DNA from: Escherichia phage T1
Sequence record: NC_005833.1
Strand: one strand, 5' to 3'
DNA length: 48,836 bases
The notes under the pieces were generated by a model. It saw only the letters and a list, made by a program, of their open reading frames with translations, ran no database searches and had not been told where the DNA came from. Below, piece after piece: positions 1 through 48,836 of the stretch (position 1 is the stretch's first letter; each line of letters opens with the position of its first letter). The position numbers and the translations under genes are program-made.

Positions 1-104
1 GTTGCATGGTGTGCAACTGTTGATGTGATTGTTGCTTAGAATGCAATGATTGTGAGAGGGGGGATCTAGTGTTACCAGGTTCGCCTGGTAGTCATCTCCA
101 TTTT

Positions 105-120
105 TAGCAAAAAGTGCTAT
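105..120 (-). promoter_or_regulatory. box copy near left end, reverse orientation, lacking a -10-like hexamer
   Basis: Plus strand TAGCAAAAAGTGCTAT; adjacent hairpin CCAGG ttcg CCTGG at 75-88. Confidence 0.35.
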
Positions 121-207
121 CGATTACGATTACGCTTGATTGCGTGTTAATCATTGTATATGATTTGCCTAAATCGCAATCGTATACAAAATTACGCCAA
201 ATTACGC

Positions 208-290
208 CTTATAATATACATATAGATATATGTATATATATAATATATAAGTGTTTTTTTTATTTATATATATAGATACTATTATTTGTA
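208..290. repeat. alternating AT-rich (TATATA-type) tract
   Basis: ataatatacatatagatatatgtatatatataatatataagtgttttttttatttatatatatagatac; a similar tract recurs at 30001-30070. Confidence 0.6.
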
Positions 291-396
291 ATATGGTTGT
301 ATAGCGTGTCTTTTATGTTAATCGTTGGATGCTCTGATTATGATGCTCATGTTTATATATACAGTAGTTTTATCGGCGCATATTTATTTAGGGAAA

Positions 397-423
397 TCGA
401 TTAACACGATTAACACGATTAAC
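397..423. repeat. tandem 9-bp iteron (CGATTAACA x3)
   Basis: cgattaacacgattaacacgattaacc read directly in the left intergenic region. Confidence 0.7.
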
Positions 424-538
424 CACACTTAAAATCGCCCCGCAGACCTTGACACATGCGGGTCGTCGTGTAACACTACGATTAGAGACACGGTGTTACA
501 TGTTAATCATGGTGTATATTGAAACTAAGGAGAAAGCT

Positions 539-1114
539 ATGAGTTCTTACCAGTCAGACGCAGTACAGGCAGCAATCAAGGCAGCTTACGAGAAGGCCGG
601 AGTAACGGTTGAGCAGCGACCGGAGGCAAAAGTGACCGATGTTATCCGGGCCGCCTGCGATCAGCTTTATGGTGATGGCGAGAATACCGAGTTCACATTC
701 GACGCGAATAAGATGGCTGAGGCCGCAGCAAGAAAGTCGATGCCAGACGCTGACGAACATGATGTTGCCAAAGGCGCCGAGTCCTGGTTGCTCGGGAAGA
801 CGGATGAGATTAACGAGAAGTTTAAATCCTCATTCATCACCCCGATCGTTTCTCGACACTTCTCCAAGATCGGCAAGTCGGTCAAGGTGAGCGTGACCAT
901 GAACGATGAGAAGTTGCGAGTCGTTACTATCTCAGTGAGTGACGAAGAAGTTCCGGTGAAGAAGCGCCGCAGCCGGAAAAAAGTCAGCCTGGCTGATTGT
1001 CTGGATTCGTTTGTTCCTGATGTTGATGATCTTGAGAAAGGCGACGTTACTGTAAGCACCGTGCGCGACCTGGTTCGCCAGATGAAAGCGCATATCGAAA
1101 AATGTGGACTGTAA
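539..1114 (+). CDS. hypothetical early protein, first gene of rightward early operon
   Basis: Track ORF 449..1114; start refined to ATG 539 preceded by AAGGAG; basic KKRRSRKK patch; no recognisable domain. Confidence 0.5.
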   Translation: MSSYQSDAVQAAIKAAYEKAGVTVEQRPEAKVTDVIRAACDQLYGDGENTEFTFDANKMAEAAARKSMPDADEHDVAKGAESWLLGKTDEINEKFKSSFITPIVSRHFSKIGKSVKVSVTMNDEKLRVVTISVSDEEVPVKKRRSRKKVSLADCLDSFVPDVDDLEKGDVTVSTVRDLVRQMKAHIEKCGL

Positions 1115-4141: not shown

Positions 4142-4360
4142 ATGGCTACTATCATGACAGTAGAAGATGCAGCACGCGATGCAGTGGAAGGAATGCGCCC
4201 AAATACCTCCAGAATAGCACACTACTACAAATCTGAGGTGTCGGCAGTGCAATTGGTCCACGAAATTTTAAGGCTCCCACAAGTCGATTCAGCGCGCGTT
4301 GTGACGTGCTTAAAAAATTATTTTTGCATCACTATTAAAACGAATAGCACGAATTGCTAA
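4142..4360 (+). CDS. hypothetical protein (72 aa); a competing 36-aa ORF at 4047..4157 has the better RBS
   Basis: Track ORF; weak RBS; overlaps small ORF 4047..4157. Confidence 0.25.
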   Translation: MATIMTVEDAARDAVEGMRPNTSRIAHYYKSEVSAVQLVHEILRLPQVDSARVVTCLKNYFCITIKTNSTNC

Positions 4361-4395
4361 AACCTATCAAGGGGAATACGCTATGATTCCCCTAC
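4344..4395 (+). promoter_or_regulatory. conserved box-hairpin element
   Basis: ATAGCACGAATTGCTAAAAC; TTGCTA 4354-4359; 22-nt spacer; TATGAT 4382-4387; AGGGGAAT / ATTCCCCT arms. Confidence 0.6.
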
Positions 4396-25042: not shown

Positions 25043-28000
25043 ATGATTCAAAAAGTGATAAGCGGATCTAAAGGTGGGTCACAGAAGCCTCATAACCCAG
25101 TTGAGATGGAGGACAATCTAATCTCAATCAACAAAATCAAGATCCTGTTAGCTGTATCTGATGGTGAAATTGACGAAACATTCAGCCTGAAGCAGTTGAT
25201 GTTTAACTCAGTCCCGGTGCAAAACGAGGATGGCTCATTTAACTTCGAGGGAGTAAAGGCAGAGTTCAGACCGGGGACGCAGACTCAGGAATATATCAAG
25301 GGAATGGAAGATAGCTCTAGTGAGGTAACTGTAAATCGTGAGGTTACTACCGATAACCCATACACAATCTCAGTAACCAACAAAACGCTGTCGGCAATCC
25401 GTATCAAAATGTTCATGCCTCGCGGCGTACGAATTGAAAGTAACGGTGATAAAAATGGCGTAAGAGTTGAGTATGAGGTGCAACAAGCTGTTGATGGCGG
25501 CTCGTTTGAGACGGTGCTCACCGATGTAATCGAAGGCAAAACAATGTCAGGTTACGATCGAAGCAGACGTGTAAACCTACCTAACTTCAACAATCAGGTG
25601 ATATTCAGAGTGGTTCGGAAAACTCCAGACTCTAACGACTCGAACGTTGTTGACGCGATTCAGGTAAAGAGCTATGCCGAGGTGATTGATGCCAAATTCC
25701 GTTATCCGCTGACTGGTCTTCTTTTTGTCGAGTTTGATTCGAAGATGTTCCCAAACCAGTTACCTACGATCTCAATTCGTAAGCGCTGGAAGATTGTAAA
25801 CGTTCCGTCAAACTATGATCCAGAATCACGAACTTATAACGGAAATTGGGATGGAACTTTTAAGAAGGCATGGACGAATAATCCGGCCTGGGTGCTTTAT
25901 GACCTGATGATTAATCAGCGTTATGGCTTGGATCAGAAAGAGCTTGGTATCGCTGTAGATAAATGGGCGCTCTACGAGGCTGCGCAATATTGCGATCAGA
26001 TGGTTCCTGATGGGAAGGGCGGGACGGAACCTCGATACCTTTGCGACGTGATAATCCAGTCTCAGACTGACGCTTACAAGGTTATCCGAGATATTTGCTC
26101 AATCTTTCGTGGTATGAGCTTTTGGAATGGTGAGAGCATTTCGGTAATCATCGACAGGCCGCGTGAACCTGCGTACATCTTCACTAACGACAACGTTGTT
26201 AATGGTGACTTCTCCTACACGTTCGCAAGCGAAAAGAGCATGTACACGACGTGTAATGTGATGTTTGATGATGAACAAAACATGTATCAGCAGGACGTTG
26301 AGCCAGTATTCGATCGTGAGGCTACTCTACGGTTTGGGAACAACGTTACGAGCATTACAGCGATCGGTTGCACACGTCGAAGCGAGGCCAACCGACGCGG
26401 GAGATGGATTCTGAAAACTAACCTCCGCAGCACTACGGTAAACTTCGCTACCGGGCTTGAGGGCATGATCCCGACAATCGGAGATGTTGTGGCAATAGCT
26501 GATAACTTCTGGTCAAGTAACTTGACAATGAACCTGTCAGGGCGTTTGCTCGAAGTGTCTGGAAGTCAGATTTTCTTGCCGTTCCGGGTGGATGCACGCG
26601 CTGGTGACTTTATTATCGTAAATAAGCCAGATGGCAAGCCTGTGAAGCGCACAATCTCAAGTGTTAGTGCGGATGGTAAGACTATAGAGGTTAACATTGG
26701 CTTTGGCTTTCCTGTGAAGCCTAACACGGTATTCGCTATCGACCGCACCGACATTGCGTTACAGCAGTACGTCGTGACAAAAATCGATAAGGGCGATGAT
26801 GATGAGGAATTTACCTACAAAATAACGGCGGTGGAGTACGATCCTAACAAGTATGATGAGATTGATTACGGAGTTAACATCGACGACCGACCGACGAGCA
26901 TCGTTGAACCAGATCAGATCCCTAGACCGAAAAATGTGCAAGTATCCTCAGAGTCGAGAATCGTCCAGGGGATGAGCGTAGAAACGATGATTGTTAGCTG
27001 GGATAAAGTTCCGTACGCTGTTTTCTATGACGTCCAGTGGCGAAAGGATAACGGCAACTGGCAAAATGTACCGCAGACAGCAAACAAAGAGGTATACGTT
27101 GAAGGTATTTACGCTGGCAACTATCAGGTTCGCGTTCGCTCAGTCGCTGGTTCGGGCACGACTTCAGGCTGGTCAAATATCGTCGCGGCAACGTTGACGG
27201 GTAAACAGGGTGAACCGGGCCGACCGATTAACCTCACAGCTACGGATGATGTTGTTTTTGGTATCCGTACAAAATGGGGGTTCTCTGATGGTTCTGGAGA
27301 TACAGCCTATACAGAGTTGCAACAGTCACCGGATGGAACAGTGGATAACGCAAGTTTGCTTTCTTTGATTCCGTATCCGCAGCATGAGTATTATCACTCA
27401 CCAATGCCTGGAGGGAATATTGTTTGGTATCGGGTAAGGACGGTTGACAGGATCGGTAACGTGTCTCAGTGGACTGATTTTGTCAGAGGTATGGCATCAA
27501 CAAACGTTGACGATATCATTGGGGAGATTTCTGTTGATATCGAAAACTCACCTGGTTACGAGTGGCTTGTTGATAACGCAACAGACAACGCGGCGCAGAA
27601 CTCAGCTAACGCAGAGGCAGCAATAGAAAACGCGCTCGCCAATGACAAAGACGCGATCTACATGAAGAAGGAGAACGGAAAACGAAAAGCTGAGTACACG
27701 AAATCACTGAAACTTATTGCTGATGAGACGCAGGCACGAGTGACGGCGATCGAGCAATTGAAGGCAAGTTTTGGCGATCAGATTAGCGCTAGCAACAGCG
27801 AGCTGCGTGAGGTTATCGCAACCGAGACTGAAGCACTATCGCGTGAGATTGACCAGCTTAAGGCTCAGATTGGTGACGATATTCAGGCAAGTCTGACTGA
27901 TATTCGGGAGGTTATCGCAACCGAGACTGAAGCACTATCGCGTGAGATTGACCAGCTTAAGGCTCAGATTGGTGACGATATTCAGGCAAGTCTGACTGAT

Positions 28001-29601: not shown

Positions 29602-29624
29602 GCCCCTTGCGGGGCTTTTATTTT
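29601..29624. terminator. bidirectional terminator between convergent genes
   Basis: AGCCCC ttgc GGGGCT flanked by T-run (plus) and A-run (minus). Confidence 0.6.
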
Positions 29625-29850
29625 ATATCGAGCAATCGTGAGATTTGAAGTTTTTCTCTGATACATAGTTGAAGGAGAATGGGTATCCAGCACGCAATAC
29701 CATCTCCTTTCCGCGCATCTTAGATCCAAAAACGTAAACCGAGTACTCCGCGCCGCCTGATTCATAAATTGCCGTGCAAGTGCGCTCAGGCATCGATGAG
29801 CAACCAGTCAGGATGAATGCCGCAGCGATAATGGTGATTAACTTTTTCAT
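29623..29850 (-). CDS. small outer-membrane-type lipoprotein (Cor/Llp-like superinfection exclusion candidate)
   Basis: 75 aa; signal peptide with lipobox LTGC (MKKLITIIAAAFILTGCSS); lone reverse-strand gene after tail module. Confidence 0.5.
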   Translation of the reverse strand: MKKLITIIAAAFILTGCSSMPERTCTAIYESGGAEYSVYVFGSKMRGKEMVLRAGYPFSFNYVSEKNFKSHDCSI

Positions 29851-30000
29851 TTGTATGTCCTCGTCGTTAGTGTGATTGCATTGTATGTCGCATTTACTTT
29901 TATTGCAATAGAGCGATTACAATTTTTTTCGTGTAACAGGCGTATATTTTTGTAACCGGAATGGGTGTTACAAAATCGCCTCCATCCGACCGCAGGGAGA

Positions 30001-30070
30001 TATGATAAAAACTCTATATAATATATATAGATAGATAATATTTAATTTTAGCTTTATATATATAATTATT
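30001..30070. repeat. second alternating AT-rich tract with flanking GTGTAACA-type repeats
   Basis: ctctatataatatatatagatagataatatttaattttagctttatatatataattattg; CGTGTAACAGG at 29929 and 30099. Confidence 0.6.
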
Positions 30071-30318
30071 GTTGTGTAACAGTTGTATATCGTGTAACAG
30101 GTGATTTGATTGATTCGTCAAATTTCTATCATGTATGTTCAAAATTTAATCAATCTGGATTCTATTTGTAGGTATCTCTGTATTTCTAATAAAAAGCGGT
30201 TACAAGTGTTACGCAATAGACAGCGCATAAAAATCTACTTAAGCCATTGATTCTGTTGATGCTGGTTGTAACTTGAGCAATATAGACACGCAATTACACA
30301 CTGATTACATGTATTCGA

Positions 30319-30346
30319 TTGACTAAACGCTGTTAATGGCTATAAT
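30319..30346 (+). promoter_or_regulatory. sigma70-like promoter for recombination operon
   Basis: TTGACT 30319-30324, 16-nt spacer, TATAAT 30341-30346, about 30 nt upstream of exonuclease start. Confidence 0.6.
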
Positions 30347-30377
30347 GGATTCATCGTAAACGAAGGAGATAAACGCA

Positions 30378-32694: not shown

Positions 32695-34881
32695 CTACGT
32701 ATTTTTTAAGCTTTCAACAAACTCTCCAGATACCATTCTTTCATGATTTCTTTTGCACTCTTCAACCTTCTTGTTGTAAATCGAGTCATTAGGCATCTCA
32801 ACTCGAACGCTAACAAAAACATCACTCGGAATGTCAATAGGATCTCCGTCGCTATACCCATCCTTATGATTTCTTGCGAATGAAGGCGCGTTATCATGAG
32901 TTCTATGATAAGTCTTGATAACCAAAGACCCATCAGGGTTAACATCATAATCTACCCACAATATAGGCTGTCCGTTAATGTCTTTTGGTATCTCTATACC
33001 ACCATTAACACCACCCCACGCTAGATCAGAATTTAGTGATAAACACCCCCTTATCAAATACTCGCCAGTAGAAATCCTCTCAACTGTACAACCTTCGCTC
33101 TCGTCGTTTGTTCTATGGCTCCCGTTGCCAAAAATATCAACGATGGGCGAGGCTCTTTTTATAAATCCGTTAGAGTCAACGGTTGTATTGCCTGTATTCC
33201 ATATAACCTGGGTAGATTGCCATTGCCCCGCTCCTGTCTGTTTTCTGAGCCTCACATCCTTATAGTGTGGAGAGGTCATTGATGCGTCTTCAATAACAAA
33301 ACCGAAAGCACTACCATCTCCTTGACCGTTTCTATGACGAACAGATATAGCTGTGACCCATCCAACAGAATTAACATTGTAACTTGCAAGGCTGCTAGGC
33401 TGAGATGATAAGGCGTTAACATAATCTACCCAGCTTGATTTCTCGTTAGATGCCGGACTTGATACAACGTTACCGGAAGAACTTGCCTGAAACGGTATCC
33501 ACGGAGAAAACTTTGCATTATTGCCGTTTTTCATCCTTATGTAAAAAGTGCCGCGACCCGCTCTTGCGTATTCGTTTTGAGAATTTCCAGATTCTGGGGC
33601 AGTACCCAAATAAGTAAAAGGCGTAAATCTCTGAATGCAAGCGCTTGCACCGTTAGCTCCATTAGGAAGAACCTCAAGCATACCTGCCGTAGCCTCAGGA
33701 TAGCCCCTACTAGCGGTAGCTAAAGCACTTGATGATTGCATATATATTCCAGGGCCATCACCTTCACCAGTTATTGAATCAAGATGTTTTTCCCCTAAGT
33801 TAGTTCTATCAAGTTTGTAAACCTTTAGGCTTGTCCTTGCCTGCTCCTCGGTAGTTCCACCAGTGCCACCAAAATTAACCCCTAGAGCCTTGTTTTCACT
33901 TCCATCATGAGTCATGGCGCCCCAGTCGCCGCTATCCTTGACGATCAGCTTAAATCCGGTCCTATCGTCATTTGAATAGATTTCCGTTAAATCTCCGCGA
34001 GGTTGATTTAATCTATTTACTGCTAGATTTTTCTTTGATTGCTCCTTGTCAGCAAGGCCAGAAAGATTTCCGTCCTTAGTTAAAAGATTGTCAGCATTAA
34101 CGCTATTTGCTGCGTCCTGAGCTTCCTGAGCACTTACCGCTGCCGCGTCTTTAGCGCTAACCGCCGCATCGCGTGCTGCCTGGGCATCGTTTTTTGCTGA
34201 GGTTGCAGTTTGCGCCGCAGTCTGAGCATCATTAACATAGCCAGATAGATCGCCTTTAGCGTCATTGATTGCCTGAATGGCCGCCGCCTCTTCAGAGTTA
34301 ATATGCGTAACGGCTGAATTTTCTTTTTGCTGCACATTAGTGATAGCCTTGTCTTTTGCTGCATTAATGCTACCAATAGCGCTATCTGAGATTTGCTGCG
34401 TCTGGTTTTTTATTGAGATAGACTCGTCACGCGCTGAATTAGCTGAGTCGCGAGCAAGCTCCGCTTGATTCTGCGCAGCTTCTGCGGCTGATTTGTTTGA
34501 CTTAATTTCTTGAACGATATTGTTCAGGTTGTCCATATCAAGATCGGCAATAATATCCAATGCCGATGCGATCTCAGTCTCTTTGCTCTGGTAGTACCGA
34601 AGCGTCTCAGCGACGTTTTGCGCAAGACCGTTAACGGTCAATGAATCGTTAAGCAAGATCACATACTTACCGTCAGCGGCAGTCTGACCATCCGTAGAGA
34701 TAGCCTTTAGCTCTGTGTCGCTCACAATGTCGCTGATTACCGCCAGTTTAATTGGTTGCTCCAGGAATACGATAGTTGCACCGACTCGAATCAGAGCAAG
34801 CTGATCTTTCCATTTTGTATCGGTTCCGTGAACCGTACCGTCTGCATCCATTGATGCAGTACCGCGTCTATATAAAGCCAT
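32695..34881 (-). CDS. tail fibre protein
   Basis: 728-aa reverse-strand ORF; long Ala/Gln/Asp/Ser-rich helical N-terminal region, Gly/Ser/Asn-rich beta-like C-terminal region. Confidence 0.6.
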   Translation of the reverse strand: MALYRRGTASMDADGTVHGTDTKWKDQLALIRVGATIVFLEQPIKLAVISDIVSDTELKAISTDGQTAADGKYVILLNDSLTVNGLAQNVAETLRYYQSKETEIASALDIIADLDMDNLNNIVQEIKSNKSAAEAAQNQAELARDSANSARDESISIKNQTQQISDSAIGSINAAKDKAITNVQQKENSAVTHINSEEAAAIQAINDAKGDLSGYVNDAQTAAQTATSAKNDAQAARDAAVSAKDAAAVSAQEAQDAANSVNADNLLTKDGNLSGLADKEQSKKNLAVNRLNQPRGDLTEIYSNDDRTGFKLIVKDSGDWGAMTHDGSENKALGVNFGGTGGTTEEQARTSLKVYKLDRTNLGEKHLDSITGEGDGPGIYMQSSSALATASRGYPEATAGMLEVLPNGANGASACIQRFTPFTYLGTAPESGNSQNEYARAGRGTFYIRMKNGNNAKFSPWIPFQASSSGNVVSSPASNEKSSWVDYVNALSSQPSSLASYNVNSVGWVTAISVRHRNGQGDGSAFGFVIEDASMTSPHYKDVRLRKQTGAGQWQSTQVIWNTGNTTVDSNGFIKRASPIVDIFGNGSHRTNDESEGCTVERISTGEYLIRGCLSLNSDLAWGGVNGGIEIPKDINGQPILWVDYDVNPDGSLVIKTYHRTHDNAPSFARNHKDGYSDGDPIDIPSDVFVSVRVEMPNDSIYNKKVEECKRNHERMVSGEFVESLKNT

Positions 34882-35978: not shown

Positions 35979-36431
35979 TTAACTAAAAATGCTATTGGTC
36001 GTTCCGATATCTTCCCTCTTCACGACGCGCATAAATTTCTTGTTCTTGCATCGCTTCTCAAGGCACTTGCCGTTACCGTCAAACTTCAGGTCGAATCGCA
36101 ACCATGCGGCCCTAAACCCTTTGCACCCCTGTCGGCGGTAAGCACGATGCGCAGCTTCAGCGCCTTGCCATGAAATCATATTGCGTTCTTTCCAGCCTTG
36201 CACCGTCTGATTGCTAACCTTCAGAGCCTTTGCGCAGGCCGCCGGGCCGCCGTAATATTCGATAAGGGCATCAAGTCGCGCTCGCAGTCCGGCGCGCGTT
36301 TCTTCTTTATGAATATAGAACCCGCAACGCTGGCGAGGCTTTTTATCTTTACCGCGCCGTGTTCCGTTGTTACCATTGATGTGACGTTTATCGATTTCAC
36401 CAGTTGACTCTGCGATACGTTGAATACTCAT
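35979..36431 (-). CDS. HTH DNA-binding protein (possible transcriptional regulator)
   Basis: 150 aa; basic; helix-turn-helix-like AACAKALKVSNQTVQGW segment. Confidence 0.4.
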   Translation of the reverse strand: MSIQRIAESTGEIDKRHINGNNGTRRGKDKKPRQRCGFYIHKEETRAGLRARLDALIEYYGGPAACAKALKVSNQTVQGWKERNMISWQGAEAAHRAYRRQGCKGFRAAWLRFDLKFDGNGKCLEKRCKNKKFMRVVKREDIGTTNSIFS

Positions 36432-36443
36432 CTTGATTCCCCT

Positions 36444-36500
36444 ATAGCACTTTTTGCTAAAAACGTTTACTTTATGCCGTGTATTATAGCGTAAACGTTA
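36444..36500 (+). promoter_or_regulatory. conserved box-hairpin element upstream of helicase
   Basis: ATAGCACTTTTTGCTAAAAAC; TTGCTA 36454-36459; 22-nt spacer; TATTAT 36482-36487; AACGTTTAC / GTAAACGTT arms. Confidence 0.55.
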
Positions 36501-36524
36501 CAACGATTCAAAGGATTAATAGCC

Positions 36525-38543: not shown

Positions 38544-38956
38544 TTACAGACAAAGGTGATTATTTAGAATTTTACGAGAGAGACACAAGCGACACTCGAA
38601 AGGAGGATGCTCATCAGGTGGATTGTGTATCTTGGCTGAAATACAATTTTCCTCACCTTCTATTTTGGCACACTGTCAATGAAGGTGAAAAAACAATCAC
38701 ATCGGCGCTCAGGGATGAGCAGGCAGGATTACTTAAAGGCGTGTCAGACTTCGTTATCCTGATTGGTGTTAACTCACGATACCCGTTTGCAGCAATCGAA
38801 CTTAAGCGGGTTAATAAGTCAGGCAAAGGAAAGGCGTCACCAGTCAGCGACAAGCAAAGGGAATTTCTCCAAAAGGTCCGGGAGCGTGGCGGCTTCTCTG
38901 CCGTCGCATACGGATTCGGGCAATTCAAGATCGCAATTTACGAAATGATGAAATAG
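38540..38956 (+). CDS. VRR-NUC domain nuclease
   Basis: SWL, GVSDFVIL, AAIELKR, SDKQREFL, GGFSAVA motif order typical of VRR-NUC PD-(D/E)XK nucleases; ATGA overlap with helicase. Confidence 0.65.
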   Translation: MITDKGDYLEFYERDTSDTRKEDAHQVDCVSWLKYNFPHLLFWHTVNEGEKTITSALRDEQAGLLKGVSDFVILIGVNSRYPFAAIELKRVNKSGKGKASPVSDKQREFLQKVRERGGFSAVAYGFGQFKIAIYEMMK

Positions 38957-39000
38957 CACTTTTTGTTAAAACTGCCGGGATGGAATCTGGCATTATTATC
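38953..39000 (+). promoter_or_regulatory. conserved box-hairpin element upstream of dam
   Basis: ATAGCACTTTTTGTTAAAAC; TTGTTA 38963-38968; 22-nt spacer; CATTAT 38991-38996. Confidence 0.55.
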
Positions 39001-40821: not shown

Positions 40822-41955
40822 ATGTCACAAGCTAAAATCACTACCGAGCAACTTATCGAAGAGCGCATGAGCGGCCTGACACTTCGCGAGATCGCGGAAA
40901 AGTACGGTATGCACATTCGCACTGTCGAGGCGCGTCACGCAAAACTTGCAAAAGAAGGCCACTTCCACGGCAACGAGCATGTTGCTAAGATGGTTCCGGA
41001 AGGCTTCATGGTAAAAGGCACGTCAACCATGATTGACGCGGAAGGTAACGAGAAGATTCGTTGGGTTAAGACATCAGTTGATAATGAGCGCCTTGAGGTT
41101 CTAATGGAAAAAGCGCGTGAAGCATTCTGTTCAGAGTTGCCTAAGGCTATTCCATCTGAATCACCTGACGTTAGTTTTGATGAAGACACGCTTGCGATGT
41201 ATCCAGTTTTTGATTTGCACATTGGTGCTCTTGCTCACAAACATGAGTGCGGCGAAAACTACGACACAGCGACAGCAGAGAAGGTTATGAATGGGTTCTT
41301 TGACTACGCTGTAGATAAGGCGCCAAACTCAAAGAATGCCGTATTGGTATTGGGTGGCGATTTCCTACATTACGACTCTTTGGAGTCTAAGACTCCAGCG
41401 TCAGGCCATTACTTAGATTCTGACAGTCGTTACGCTAAGCTTGTTTATGTCGCAATCCGATCAGTACGACGCGCAGTCTCTCGAATGCTGGAGAAGCACC
41501 AAGTTATTGATATTAAAGCAATAAGTGGGAATCACGACGAATCAGGGATGGTTTGGTTGCGCGCTGCGCTTGCTGCATTTTATGAAGATGAGCCGCGCGT
41601 AAATGTTGATGTTAGCCCTGCCGCAATGATGATGACCAGCTTTGGTAAGACCCTTATTGGATACACTCACGGGCATCAAATGCGAAAAGCAGATACTCGA
41701 CTAAGTGTTATGGCAACTGATTTTCGTAAGTTGTTTGGTCAAAGTGATTACGTTTACACGCATAGCGGTCACTGGCACAGTCAAAAGATTACAGAAACAA
41801 ACTTGGGTATTGATGAGGTTCATGGTCAGCTTGGAAGTCCTGACGCATACTCTGCCAATGGCGGTTGGAGGTCTCAGCGTCAAGCTGCTGTGATTGTCTA
41901 TCACAAGGAATTTGGTGAGGTTGGACGATTCATTTGTCGACCTGAAATGTTCTAA
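40822..41955 (+). CDS. HTH domain fused to calcineurin-like metallophosphoesterase
   Basis: N-terminal HTH-like LTLREIAEKYGMHIRTV; C-terminal GGDFLHYD and ISGNHDE metallophosphatase motifs. Confidence 0.6.
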   Translation: MSQAKITTEQLIEERMSGLTLREIAEKYGMHIRTVEARHAKLAKEGHFHGNEHVAKMVPEGFMVKGTSTMIDAEGNEKIRWVKTSVDNERLEVLMEKAREAFCSELPKAIPSESPDVSFDEDTLAMYPVFDLHIGALAHKHECGENYDTATAEKVMNGFFDYAVDKAPNSKNAVLVLGGDFLHYDSLESKTPASGHYLDSDSRYAKLVYVAIRSVRRAVSRMLEKHQVIDIKAISGNHDESGMVWLRAALAAFYEDEPRVNVDVSPAAMMMTSFGKTLIGYTHGHQMRKADTRLSVMATDFRKLFGQSDYVYTHSGHWHSQKITETNLGIDEVHGQLGSPDAYSANGGWRSQRQAAVIVYHKEFGEVGRFICRPEMF

Positions 41956-44516: not shown

Positions 44517-46085
44517 TTAACCCATCAGTCGAGGATTGATGAAAACAATATCATCAATCCGGCAAGTGTAGTTCATCTCTTCGAGCGTGATCAGCAGGCT
44601 GTCGATTCGCTCAGCTACTTTTTGTTGACCGTTGAACGGCGTAACGTTACGGCACTTTGCAACAATGCTATGAATAGGTGCGCGACCTTTGTTCTTCTTT
44701 GCGATCTCAGTGATAACATCAATCAGCTTACGAGATTCAGCCTCATCACCAGCATACCCGGCGGCGCTGGCAGACGACAGATAGGTTCTGGAAAGCTCAT
44801 TGAAAATCATGATCGCTTCCTGCATTGTTTCAAGGTCAATCTCACGGTTGGAACGGTTCGGTGATTCACCCTCCCAGTTCTTGATTGTGTGAAGAACTGA
44901 AGCAATGCGCAAAGCGTGCTTATCGAACTTGCCGAGATGACCGCGTAGCATTGAGTGAGAGTATTTGCCCCCGGCTGCGAAATCCGGCTCCATAGCCTGG
45001 CGAGCAAGGTTTAATTCACGCATAGCATTACGGCTTACAGAGAGAACAACGTTGTCCTCCTTCATAATGTTGTGCACAAGTCGATAATATTTACTCACCA
45101 ATCCTCGATCGACTTCCTTATACAGTGCATCACCATTTTCATCGCAAAGAATACGAGTGCCTAAAAGAGGTTCCTCGCGAACCAATAGGAAACGCTCAGA
45201 TACACCGATACCGCGCTGGCCTGCGTCCATGATACCCTTGATTGTTTCATCCTGCGCAATGACGCAGATCGAACCGACCGGGCAAAGAGATAAGTTATTG
45301 TCCTGATTTGAACGCGCAACCTCCATATGGTTTTTATCCCACGCCTTGAGGATAAGCTCGCTGTTTGATTTCTTATCAGAACCGCCATAAGTCAGGCCAA
45401 GCAATGTATTTATTGCCGTTGCCTCATCAGAGATTACGGAAAAGTGGCCTTGAACAGCAGCTACTTTCGCAAGACCTTCCGGTGTAGGATCTGATACCGC
45501 GAAAACAATATCAGCCATCTTCTTGATCTTCTCTTCCAGTTTTTCCTTGTCCTCGTACAGCGCCGCCGTCGTGTTACCCTTCGGATCGTTTTTGATTTCC
45601 TTCTCGATCTGACGTAGCTGACTGGTTAAACGGATACGTTCCTTTTTGCGCTCTTCATTCAGTCTCTGAATCTCTGCGCGCATAGGTGTAATCGCCGCTG
45701 AGTTAATCGCGGATTTACCTGTTGATGGTGGCTGGCTAATCACCATATAAAGAGCGGTCGGTTGTTCTTCTCCGTGATATTGCACCCAAAACTTCCCTAG
45801 CATCGCGGCTGAGATGCACCCAATGAAATGAGCGTACGCAGACGAAACAGGAAACTGTACAGACTCAGCTTTTGCTTTTGCATATTCGAATACCAGGTTA
45901 TCGCCACCTAACGAAATCAGCGGGAACTTATCGTTTCCACTGTTGATATCGATCGGGTCTTGCCAAAACGAAACTGAATCCCCGTAGCTGTTTTCACGAA
46001 TTGCGATCGCCACCGGATTAACTCCAGTGCTATTTGCGATCTCAATAATCTGTTGGTAATTCAGTTTTGGCTTAATATTAAACAT
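44517..46085 (-). CDS. P-loop NTPase (possible replication-associated ATPase)
   Basis: Track ORF 44517..46148; start refined to Met 46085 (ATG sharing one base with HNH stop); Walker A-like QPPSTGKS. Confidence 0.55.
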   Translation of the reverse strand: MFNIKPKLNYQQIIEIANSTGVNPVAIAIRENSYGDSVSFWQDPIDINSGNDKFPLISLGGDNLVFEYAKAKAESVQFPVSSAYAHFIGCISAAMLGKFWVQYHGEEQPTALYMVISQPPSTGKSAINSAAITPMRAEIQRLNEERKKERIRLTSQLRQIEKEIKNDPKGNTTAALYEDKEKLEEKIKKMADIVFAVSDPTPEGLAKVAAVQGHFSVISDEATAINTLLGLTYGGSDKKSNSELILKAWDKNHMEVARSNQDNNLSLCPVGSICVIAQDETIKGIMDAGQRGIGVSERFLLVREEPLLGTRILCDENGDALYKEVDRGLVSKYYRLVHNIMKEDNVVLSVSRNAMRELNLARQAMEPDFAAGGKYSHSMLRGHLGKFDKHALRIASVLHTIKNWEGESPNRSNREIDLETMQEAIMIFNELSRTYLSSASAAGYAGDEAESRKLIDVITEIAKKNKGRAPIHSIVAKCRNVTPFNGQQKVAERIDSLLITLEEMNYTCRIDDIVFINPRLMG

Positions 46086-46624
46086 CACAATAAACTCCTT
46101 AGTTGACGGCGTGAATGATACACCGTCAATGGTACACGCGTTTTGCAAAAAGTGCTATTCGATCCGTGATTCTCATGAAAACCGTATAGCCTTTCCGCTT
46201 CCTTCCTTGCTTTAGCCGCTGCATCCAGCGTCATGAAGGTCCCTAAGTGTTTTGTCTTTTTATTTATGGTTATGTTTGCCGTGTATCTATTTGTTTTTTT
46301 ATTCCAATACACTCCCATAACTCCTGTGTTTGATGACACTACTCCCTTGTTTCTTAGGTTGTCTTGCCTAGTTACTAGCCTGAGATTCTCAATTCTGTTA
46401 TCGTCTCTTTCATGGTTTATGTGGTCTACATCCATTCCTTCTGGTATGTTTCCGTAGTGTATTTTCCATACTATTCGATGGGCGTATTCAAATACACCTC
46501 CTGGAAAACATATTGACCGATAACCTTTTTTATTAACAGTTCCGGCAAGTAGATTTCGTCTTCTTCCGATTCTCCACTCTTTCCAGTACAGTCTCCCGCT
46601 AACGTATTTCAGTTCATCTTTCAT
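46085..46624 (-). CDS. HNH homing endonuclease with AP2-like domain
   Basis: GNIPEGMDVDHINHERDDNRIENL core; AGA/ATA-rich codons; last 25 codons read through a box-hairpin element. Confidence 0.75.
   Translation of the reverse strand: MKDELKYVSGRLYWKEWRIGRRRNLLAGTVNKKGYRSICFPGGVFEYAHRIVWKIHYGNIPEGMDVDHINHERDDNRIENLRLVTRQDNLRNKGVVSSNTGVMGVYWNKKTNRYTANITINKKTKHLGTFMTLDAAAKARKEAERLYGFHENHGSNSTFCKTRVPLTVYHSRRQLRSLL
46100..46160 (-). promoter_or_regulatory. conserved box-hairpin element, reverse strand, inside 3' end of HNH ORF
   Basis: Reverse complement reads ATAGCACTTTTTGCAAAA, 22 nt, TATCAT, then RBS and ATG of P-loop NTPase gene. Confidence 0.55.
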
Positions 46625-48674: not shown

Positions 48675-48689
48675 AATACTTTCCTCGTT

Positions 48690-48751
48690 TACTGTTGATG
48701 TGATGAATCATACCCAGTAGACATGGATAAGTCGTTAGCAAAAAATGCTAT
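48690..48751 (-). promoter_or_regulatory. conserved box element, reverse strand, upstream of first leftward gene
   Basis: Reverse complement reads ATAGCATTTTTTGCTAA, 22 nt, GTATGA. Confidence 0.5.
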
Positions 48752-48836
48752 TCCAATAATTGCTCATTATTCCATCAATACTGGAATATCTGGAATAATC
48801 ACGATCATGATTGATCTCTAATGATGAGATGTGATT

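Follow-up and report, generated by a model that had tools for sequence, protein, structure and literature searches.

The 48,836-bp stretch of DNA analysed here (the window) is coliphage T1; the kilobase used as query is 99.7% identical to Tunavirus T1 (MN153797). At positions 29851-30377, a gap of 527 bp, referred to here as region B, separates cor from the exo/erf/ssb operon. The original prediction had placed this region between a divergent lipoprotein gene and an exo/annealase/ssb operon, and both neighbours were confirmed, with cor on the minus strand. Genomes of T1-like phages show terminal redundancy and partial circular permutation and are packaged by the headful mechanism (PMC11447400). 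As the right end is joined straight to the left end in permuted relatives, the left end of T1 is a long divergent intergenic region too. It consists of 48675..48836 joined to 1..538, with a leftward early operon on one side and a rightward one on the other, and it contains the left-end copy that we call region A. The GC skew of the T1 genome tracks gene orientation and carries no origin signal, and cannot locate an origin. Elsewhere in the window, the tail-fibre gene (32695-34881, minus strand) is one 728-aa ORF, whereas two CDS are annotated in the 99.7%-identical MN153797 (48,822 bp); this points to a frameshift or indel between T1 stocks.

The features of both regions are collected in Table 1. 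Segment 29851-29915, which holds the candidate cor promoter, is 95.6% identical within the genus. TGTAAC words flank the (TA)n-rich core on either side as direct and inverted pairs, with an irregular spacing that is unlike that of classical iterons. The segment that contains W4 and W5 forms a 30-nt direct repeat with 29918-29947, and W6/W7 matches W4 in inverted orientation over 16 nt (88% complementary), at a distance of 113 nt. The inverted repeat of W2 and W3 has an operator-like footprint, as judged from its pattern of conservation. The near-invariant block has a hairpin z-score of only -1.65. The IHF consensus has five matches in the genome, with 0.13 expected in regions A and B, and in the weak promoter-like element the ATTGATT and TGGTTGTAACTTGA stretches are kept in the genus alignment. 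The exo promoter is the top gene-oriented intergenic match of the T1 genome and carries a promoter annotation in SA32RD; a similar promoter-like pair, usually starting with TTGACT, lies just upstream of exo in eight more distant loci. No word overlaps this strong promoter. The AT core lies 250-320 bp upstream of it, which is too far for the core to be an UP element, and the promoter scan found no good promoter inside the AT tract of region B.

Table 1. Features in and around regions A and B of T1, with positions in the window.
Feature	Position	Strand	Remarks
Region A, left-end paralogue	143..538	+	
Early rightward promoter of region A, TTGACA-17-(TGt)AACACT	449-477		Overlaps GTGTAACAC (468-476)
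GTGTTACA	493		In region A
cor	29623..29850	-	Superinfection-exclusion lipoprotein; left neighbour of region B
Candidate cor sigma-70 promoter	29880..29908	-	TTGCAA-17-TACAAT, 9/12 matches
Word W1, CGTGTAACAGG	29930..29940	+	GTGTAAC core kept in Tunavirus loci
Perfect 9-bp inverted repeat TTTTGTAAC-N10-GTTACAAAA (words W2 and W3)	29948..29975		Half-sites conserved, spacer variable
(TA)n-rich core, candidate DNA-unwinding element	30000..30070		Paralogue of left-end 208-300
Direct word pair W4 and W5 (TGTGTAACAG ... CGTGTAACAGG, 18 bp apart)	30071..30101	+	Conserved in genus
Near-invariant block	30102..30157		Imperfect inverted repeat 30112-30132 / 30135-30155
Palindromic Fis consensus match	30137-30151		Consensus match only; a lead
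Words W6 and W7 (GCGGTTACAAGTGTTACGCAA)	30196..30216	-	Second word varies within genus
Single exact IHF consensus match (AATCAATGGCTTA)	30240..30252	-	Consensus match only
Weak promoter-like element TTGATT-N14-TGTAAC (word W8)	30246..30275	+	Aligns with left-end TTGACA-N14-TGTAAC, 449-477
Near-consensus sigma-70 promoter of exo/erf/ssb, TTGACT-16-TATAAT	30319..30346	+	
exo/erf/ssb operon	30378 onward		Right neighbour of region B
21-nt repeat, example sites	1450-1468, 4344-4362, 36444-36462, 38953-38971; 102-120 and 48733-48751 (-)		

The elements that the original prediction named in region B all exist, with some of its positions off (offsets of 0-8 nt). CGTGTAACAGG starts at 29930 and 30091 (given as 29929 and 30099), TGTGTAACAG at 30073 (given as 30071) and GTGTTACG at 30206 (given as 30209), whereas GGTGTTACAA at 29964 and the exo promoter (11/12 consensus matches) were placed exactly. 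Counted formally, the word family that had been read as a motif set of both loci is clearly enriched in region B and only modestly in region A. GTGTAACA has four matches genome-wide, with 1.07 expected. All six genome copies of TGTAACA, counted on both strands, lie inside regions A and B (binomial 2.5e-10; ~2e-6 when corrected for 7766 7-mers). As a null for region B, we used a first-order Markov model of its own composition with 1500 simulations: TGTAACA is found 4 times where 0.15 are expected, and TGTAAC 7 times in the 527 bp where 0.40 are expected, and neither count was reached in any simulation (0/1500 for each). The enrichment of TGTAACA in region A is modest (2 vs 0.18, P ~0.02), and the TGTAACA/GTGTWAC copies there are few and not kept across the Tunavirus genus. 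In an unbiased survey of all 6-8-mers, (TA)n words ranked first and the TGTAACA/GTTACA family second. The same type of AT tract is indeed present at both loci, and the relation is one of sequence and not of composition alone: 18 of the 20 genome copies of ATATATA lie in A and B, and the local alignment of A and B, in the same orientation, has z = 7.8 against locally shuffled controls.

Next to this likeness, the two regions differ in their words. The dominant word of region A is CGTGTTAATC and not the word of region B, and the common part is only GTGTWA, of which 13 of the 50 genome copies lie in A and B. TGTTAATC occurs six times in the genome, with five copies in A but not one in B. The AT core of region A (208-300) is surrounded by CGTGTTAATC-rich 32-nt inverted arms (143-174 and 386-417, 78% complementary), and further CGTGTTAATC-type copies are found at 316 and 501. 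When region B was searched genome-wide with nhmmer, A was the sole other T1 match (E = 0.005), with 30021-30303 of B colinear with 226-505 of A. This alignment starts in the AT core and reaches a common TTGAYW-N14-TGTAAC...AGACACG..TTACA element; at the left end, this element is the rightward early promoter. A mosaic unit is made up of the right half of region A and the first early gene (window 300-1114; gene 539..1114). Comparison of window 300-1114 with five loci (L050, L052, L054, L057 and L058) revealed two Tunavirus sublineages that differ in this unit, with gp1 at ~50% vs ~92% identity and different words, while the AT core and region B are kept in both. The GTGTWAC copies of region A are not kept in the second sublineage.

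Of all 60-mers of T1, those in the two AT cores have the lowest duplex stability (214-273, z = 5.8; 30009-30068, z = 5.5; the next has z = 3.8), and A and B also hold the two most meltable 60-mers of Rtp and of Rogue1. We measured conservation on 14 Tunavirus sequences. Identity is 98.8% in the AT core, where 94% of the columns are invariant, and 96.5% in the adjacent block of words and inverted repeat. The corresponding values are 97.8%, 98.9% and 79.2% for codon positions 1, 2 and 3 of exo and 68.7% for cor; the AT core is as conserved as the first two codon positions of exo. Conservation of region B lacks codon periodicity and peaks in the (TA)n tract. By these alignments, the core is under purifying selection at the nucleotide level, and the half-sites of the 9-bp inverted repeat are kept around a drifting spacer; this is functional DNA.

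Searches for known kinds of element in this conserved DNA returned little. Regions A and B contain no exact DnaA box (TTWTNCACA) and three one-mismatch boxes where 2.0 are expected, and GATC sites do not cluster in them (none in B and three in A, out of 235 in the genome). As neither DnaA boxes nor GATC sites are enriched, we rejected a DnaA-dependent origin of the oriC type for region B. T1 encodes a Dam-type methylase, yet region B has no GATC; with ~2.5 expected, this is not significant alone. Consensus scans for CRP, LexA and Fur gave nothing meaningful. The top match in an Rfam 15 scan was a fungal snoRNA model at 19.8 bits, against a gathering score of 40. A scan for ORFs down to 20 aa yielded nothing credible, only short ORFs that lack an ATG start or are odd in composition, and no terminator was found after the core. 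The cruciform or hairpin potential of the AT core does not differ from that of shuffles in B (z = 0.66) and does so weakly in A (z = -1.71). The core has no match in E. coli chromosomes and plasmids, which were searched for possible satellites and mini-replicons.

To place the region in a wider context, we compared 45 IMG/VR loci with exo homologues ranging from 99% down to 42% identity. An AT tract lies upstream of exo in all 45 loci. In 43 of them, a 100-mer with 80-86% AT precedes exo by ~350-400 bp; the remaining two have it nearer to exo, and in one of these (L043) it has only 74% AT. GTGTWAC sites are limited to the T1 genus and its nearest neighbour, and different words take these positions in other lineages: TGTAATC/GATTACA in SRT8, and TGTTCC-N4-TGTTCAC upstream with GTGAACA-N2-GGAACA downstream in TLS-like phages. 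In Rtp, all six genome copies of CCGCGGA lie in A and B, as do all four copies of ACGCGTA in Rogue1. Of the two features that the original prediction saw recur, the GTGTAACA word is specific to the genus, and the conserved element is the (TA)n core.

We examined the A/B pair in five Drexlerviridae genera from four subfamilies, represented by T1, TLS, SRT8, Rtp and Rogue1. The best non-self nhmmer match of B is A in the same orientation in TLS (7e-9), SRT8 (2e-11), Rtp (9e-23) and Rogue1 (6e-13) as well. By this measure, A and B are co-oriented paralogous modules in all five genera. In SRT8, the likeness of A and B (E = 2e-11) at least equals that of SRT8 B and T1 B (E = 4e-9), and single-sequence nhmmer searches with TLS B or the T1 B core found no significant match in region B of another genus. 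This suggests concerted evolution of A and B with a reader that is encoded by the phage rather than by the host. A host factor fits less well, as the words differ among genera although four of the five phages, including Rtp and Rogue1, list E. coli as their host. In TLS, no divergent gene lies beside B and the module is intact, which argues that the module is not there to serve cor. The A and B copies of Rogue1 (L087) lie at 109-453 and 26499-26829. Those of Rtp (L086; 129-375 and 28002-28254) are near-identical over ~90 bp (AATATCTATATATA.CAACC.TTTA....ATTATTATTATTATATATATTACT.TGTATATCATGTA), which suggests recent gene conversion or very tight constraint.

Next, we focused on the proteins that might act on these modules. 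The replication and DNA-binding set of T1 comprises a primase with a zinc ribbon of the T7 gp4/P4 type (PF08273), an SF2 helicase, a VRR-NUC nuclease, an SbcD-like exonuclease, a Cro-like HTH protein and a DUF3987 protein. Two genes had been put forward as HTH proteins. That at 35979..36431 encodes the Cro-like HTH protein, annotated as a transcriptional regulator, whereas that at 40822..41955 (plus strand) turned out to encode a calcineurin-like phosphoesterase, a DNA repair exonuclease of the SbcD/Mre11 type (Pfam Metallophos, PHROG 704). An AlphaFold model of the DUF3987 protein (pLDDT 88.5, pTM 0.87) matched MCM2-7 subunits with probability 1.0 in a fold search, and the model ends in a C-terminal winged helix (alpha-beta-alpha-alpha-beta-beta). 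DUF3987 has been placed among the SF6 replicative helicases (PMC4889955; PMC11724360). As the MCM-like model agrees with this published assignment, the DUF3987 protein (44517-46148, minus strand) is probably the replicative helicase of T1. Its annotated start gives 522 aa (44517..46085), and a longer ORF with a TTG start is probably not used. Sequence and profile searches of the PDB with the helicase and the HTH protein gave no informative matches, so that the fold search alone was informative.

No initiator was recognisable among the T1 proteins; the candidates considered were the Cro-like HTH protein and the winged helix of the MCM-like helicase. Across genera, the recognition helix of the HTH protein shows no clean co-variation with the words, in a comparison of only five groups: SRT8 and IME347-like phages have an identical helix and different words, and TLS-like and L017-like phages have different helices and the same word. 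The winged helix of the helicase splits only the two major clades, which makes its co-variation with the words uninformative. The operon of the HTH protein and primase is served by a leftward sigma-70-like promoter (36483-36511, minus strand; TTGAAT-17-TATAAT, 10/12). A TGTAAC word lies in its spacer, inside a near-palindrome (GTAAACGTTAC), and the equivalent TLS promoter has a different palindrome (ATGCCGCAAATGGCAT). This word could be an autoregulatory operator.

As the comparisons above indicate, region B is copy B of a non-coding module that is carried twice in every T1-like phage examined, with copy A at the left end, next to the presumed pac site. The original prediction had linked the two loci through a common regulator or as two origin-like elements. 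A functional link is supported, and more strongly as paralogous modules than it was as a shared motif set, while sequence does not separate a common regulator from two origins. We tentatively favour the reading that the module acts as a phage replication origin, with oriB paired with oriA, upstream of an immediate-early promoter. At such an origin, a protein made by the phage would occupy the words. The near-consensus sigma-70 promoter fires away from the core and, by the twin-domain model, would leave negative supercoiling behind it. This supercoiling behind the adjacent early promoter or promoters would help the AT core to open, after which the MCM-like (DUF3987) helicase and primase of T1 would be loaded and host polymerase would extend.

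The origin reading is favoured by the extreme and conserved meltability of the core, the word arrays on both sides of it and the presence of two copies that evolve in concert. The module does not depend on the divergent gene, its core is too distant from the promoter to be an element of it, and T1 has its own helicase and primase; these points and the two-origin precedent of SPP1 lead in the same direction. Against the origin reading, no initiator was recognised, neither the HTH protein nor the winged helix of the helicase co-varies convincingly with the words, and the dominant words differ between A and B of T1. In addition, the words of region A differ among Tunavirus sublineages in which region B is conserved, which is awkward for a single initiator that acts on both copies. 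Two further observations suit a transcriptional role: the homology of A and B reaches the promoter-like element, and promoter elements are overlapped by some of the words. The 2024 reannotation of TLS identified no origin (PMC11447400). In the literature that we searched, we found neither origin mapping nor a transcriptome for a T1-like phage, nor an account of the control of its early transcription, and the paired module is not described, although the 2004 T1 genome paper may mention AT-rich regions. We consider it improbable that the modules are a pair of concertedly evolving origins in which short TGT-N-ACA-type words, set in inverted arrays around the (TA)n core, are read by DNA-binding domains of the MCM-like (SF6) helicase or by an unrecognised early protein, with copy B also serving as a fork-arrest site that leads to a recombination-dependent concatemer mode. 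If true, such an MCM-helicase origin pair would be the counterpart, in a bacterial virus, of the core-origin design of SV40 and papillomaviruses.

The main alternative, possible if somewhat doubtful, is that the module is a control hub for immediate-early transcription, that is, the long upstream region of two early promoters read by host RNA polymerase (sigma-70), the rightward promoter at A and the exo promoter at B. The words would then be operators through which a phage regulator tunes or shuts off early transcription, as lambda Cro does at OL/OR, and the AT core would be curved or supercoil-sensitive DNA or a nucleoid-protein site (Fis, IHF or H-NS) that modulates the promoters. In keeping with this, each copy has a near-consensus sigma-70 promoter at its end, in place of the 21-nt repeat (ATAGCACnnnTTGnTAAAA) found at most other gene clusters of T1, and the homology of A and B runs into the TTGAYW-N14-TGTAAC element. 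Overlap with words is seen in the weak element (30246-30275), in the left-end promoter (449-477) and in the spacer of the 36483-36511 promoter, and TTTTGTAAC-N10-GTTACAAAA resembles the operator of a dimer. The co-variation of the right half of region A with its early gene, the single Fis and IHF consensus matches and the annotation of the Cro-like HTH protein as a regulator fit as well. However, the word-free exo promoter lies far from the AT core, and the AT tract of region B has no good promoter of its own. Conservation of nearly every base over 70 bp exceeds what curvature or AT-richness would need, and the recognition helix of the HTH protein does not follow the words. The two roles, origin and control of early transcription, are compatible and not mutually exclusive.

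Three further explanations have less in their favour. We regard another cis-acting role as unlikely, be it a site of nucleoprotein or architectural nature (for the loading of H-NS, IHF or Fis), a site of recombination or fork arrest that feeds recombination-dependent replication beside exo/erf/ssb, or an accessory packaging site related to copy A near pac. Copy A lies within ~200-300 bp of genome coordinate 1, which we take to be the pac cut, copy B adjoins the recombination operon, and nucleoid proteins bind AT-rich DNA in general. Generic architecture would leave the lineage-specific words and the base-by-base conservation unexplained, and, against a packaging role, we know of no second packaging start reported for T1-like phages. 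In favour of a packaging role, TLS region A holds an AGATTT that matches the proposed pac sequence, for which the paper gives no coordinate; the same paper describes a single pac (PMC11447400). In SPP1, oriR has been proposed to stall forks and thereby trigger the switch to concatemers via the phage exonuclease, annealase and SSB (PMC6316719). A small RNA or micro-protein encoded in region B could account for a highly conserved stretch without annotation, and hypothetical ORFs are annotated here in some relatives. We hold it to be very unlikely, given that there is no Rfam match near threshold, no credible ORF and no terminator after the core, that folding energies are ordinary, and that conservation lacks codon periodicity and peaks in the (TA)n tract. 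Finally, the motif likeness might be a chance product of AT-rich intergenic composition, as the left-end GTGTWAC copies are few and not conserved. This is scarcely credible and effectively refuted: composition-matched simulations never reached the counts in region B, A is the best non-self nhmmer match of B in five genera, and purifying selection is strong.

T1 belongs to the classical T phages, and phages of its type are notorious as contaminants of laboratories and fermentations. Our comparison narrows the search to two paralogous elements of ~150-300 bp that are conserved in the five genera (four subfamilies) examined. As coordinates and candidate binding words are now at hand, the questions of the origin and of early regulation are directly testable. 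If the elements are origins, they would provide a model for the recruitment of an MCM-like helicase in a bacterial virus.

One repeat is already known from the intergenic regions of these phages, the 21-nt direct repeat of Drexlerviridae (aaATAGCACnnnTTGnTAAAA), which is family-wide and includes T1, TLS and Rtp (PMC11447400). In T1, ATAGCACnnnTTGnTAAAA has 24 matches with up to three mismatches, where 2.1 are expected, mostly intergenic and co-oriented with genes. Two copies lie in region A and none in 29851-30377. We therefore rejected this repeat, which differs in sequence, as the identity of region B. The copy at 36444-36462 ends ~20 nt upstream of a -10-like TATTAT, and the layout in TLS is the same. 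The repeat and -10 together look like a phage-specific class of promoter, in which the repeat would stand in place of the -35.

The paired module itself can be compared with several systems. [quoted passage not shown] It resembles T1 in its genome (pac-type siphoviruses of ~45-49 kb), in having two related elements that are non-coding or partly coding and combine repeated words, protein-binding in SPP1, with an AT-rich element, one of them in or near the late region, and in its genes for an exonuclease, an annealase and an SSB (PMC6316719). SPP1 differs in its known binder, gp38, in its DnaB-type helicase with a loader and in the position of oriL inside gene 38. In T1, the helicase is MCM-like (SF6) and both copies are intergenic, upstream of sigma-70 promoters. 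The lambda origin and the iteron plasmids likewise have repeated binding words beside an AT-rich region, with activation by nearby transcription plausible. Lambda, however, relies on one origin, located within its initiator gene and built of four regular iterons of 19 bp, whereas the words of T1 are 6-10 bp long, irregularly spaced and of mixed orientation, flank the AT core on either side and occur at two loci. The authors of the TLS study found no lambda-like iterons (PMC11447400).

Satellite P4, with ori and crr and the alpha primase-helicase, has two separated loci with short octamer-like words, as does T1, and a primase with the same type of zinc ribbon (PF08273). Its type I iteron, TGTTCACC, resembles the TGTTCAC word of the TLS group. 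The word of T1 is different, and its SF6/DUF3987 helicase is separate from the primase, in contrast to the SF3 domain of alpha. In lambda OL/OR, bound by Cro and CI, two loci that lie a few to many kilobases apart share a set of operator words and control early promoters; T1 likewise encodes a Cro-like HTH protein. The lambda sites are regular, 17 bp long and overlap the promoters, and a (TA)n core is absent. The words of T1, by contrast, mostly lie well away from the strong promoter and do not co-vary with the HTH helix. The paired module of T1-like phages falls in known classes, as an origin with a DUE and words or as an early control region.
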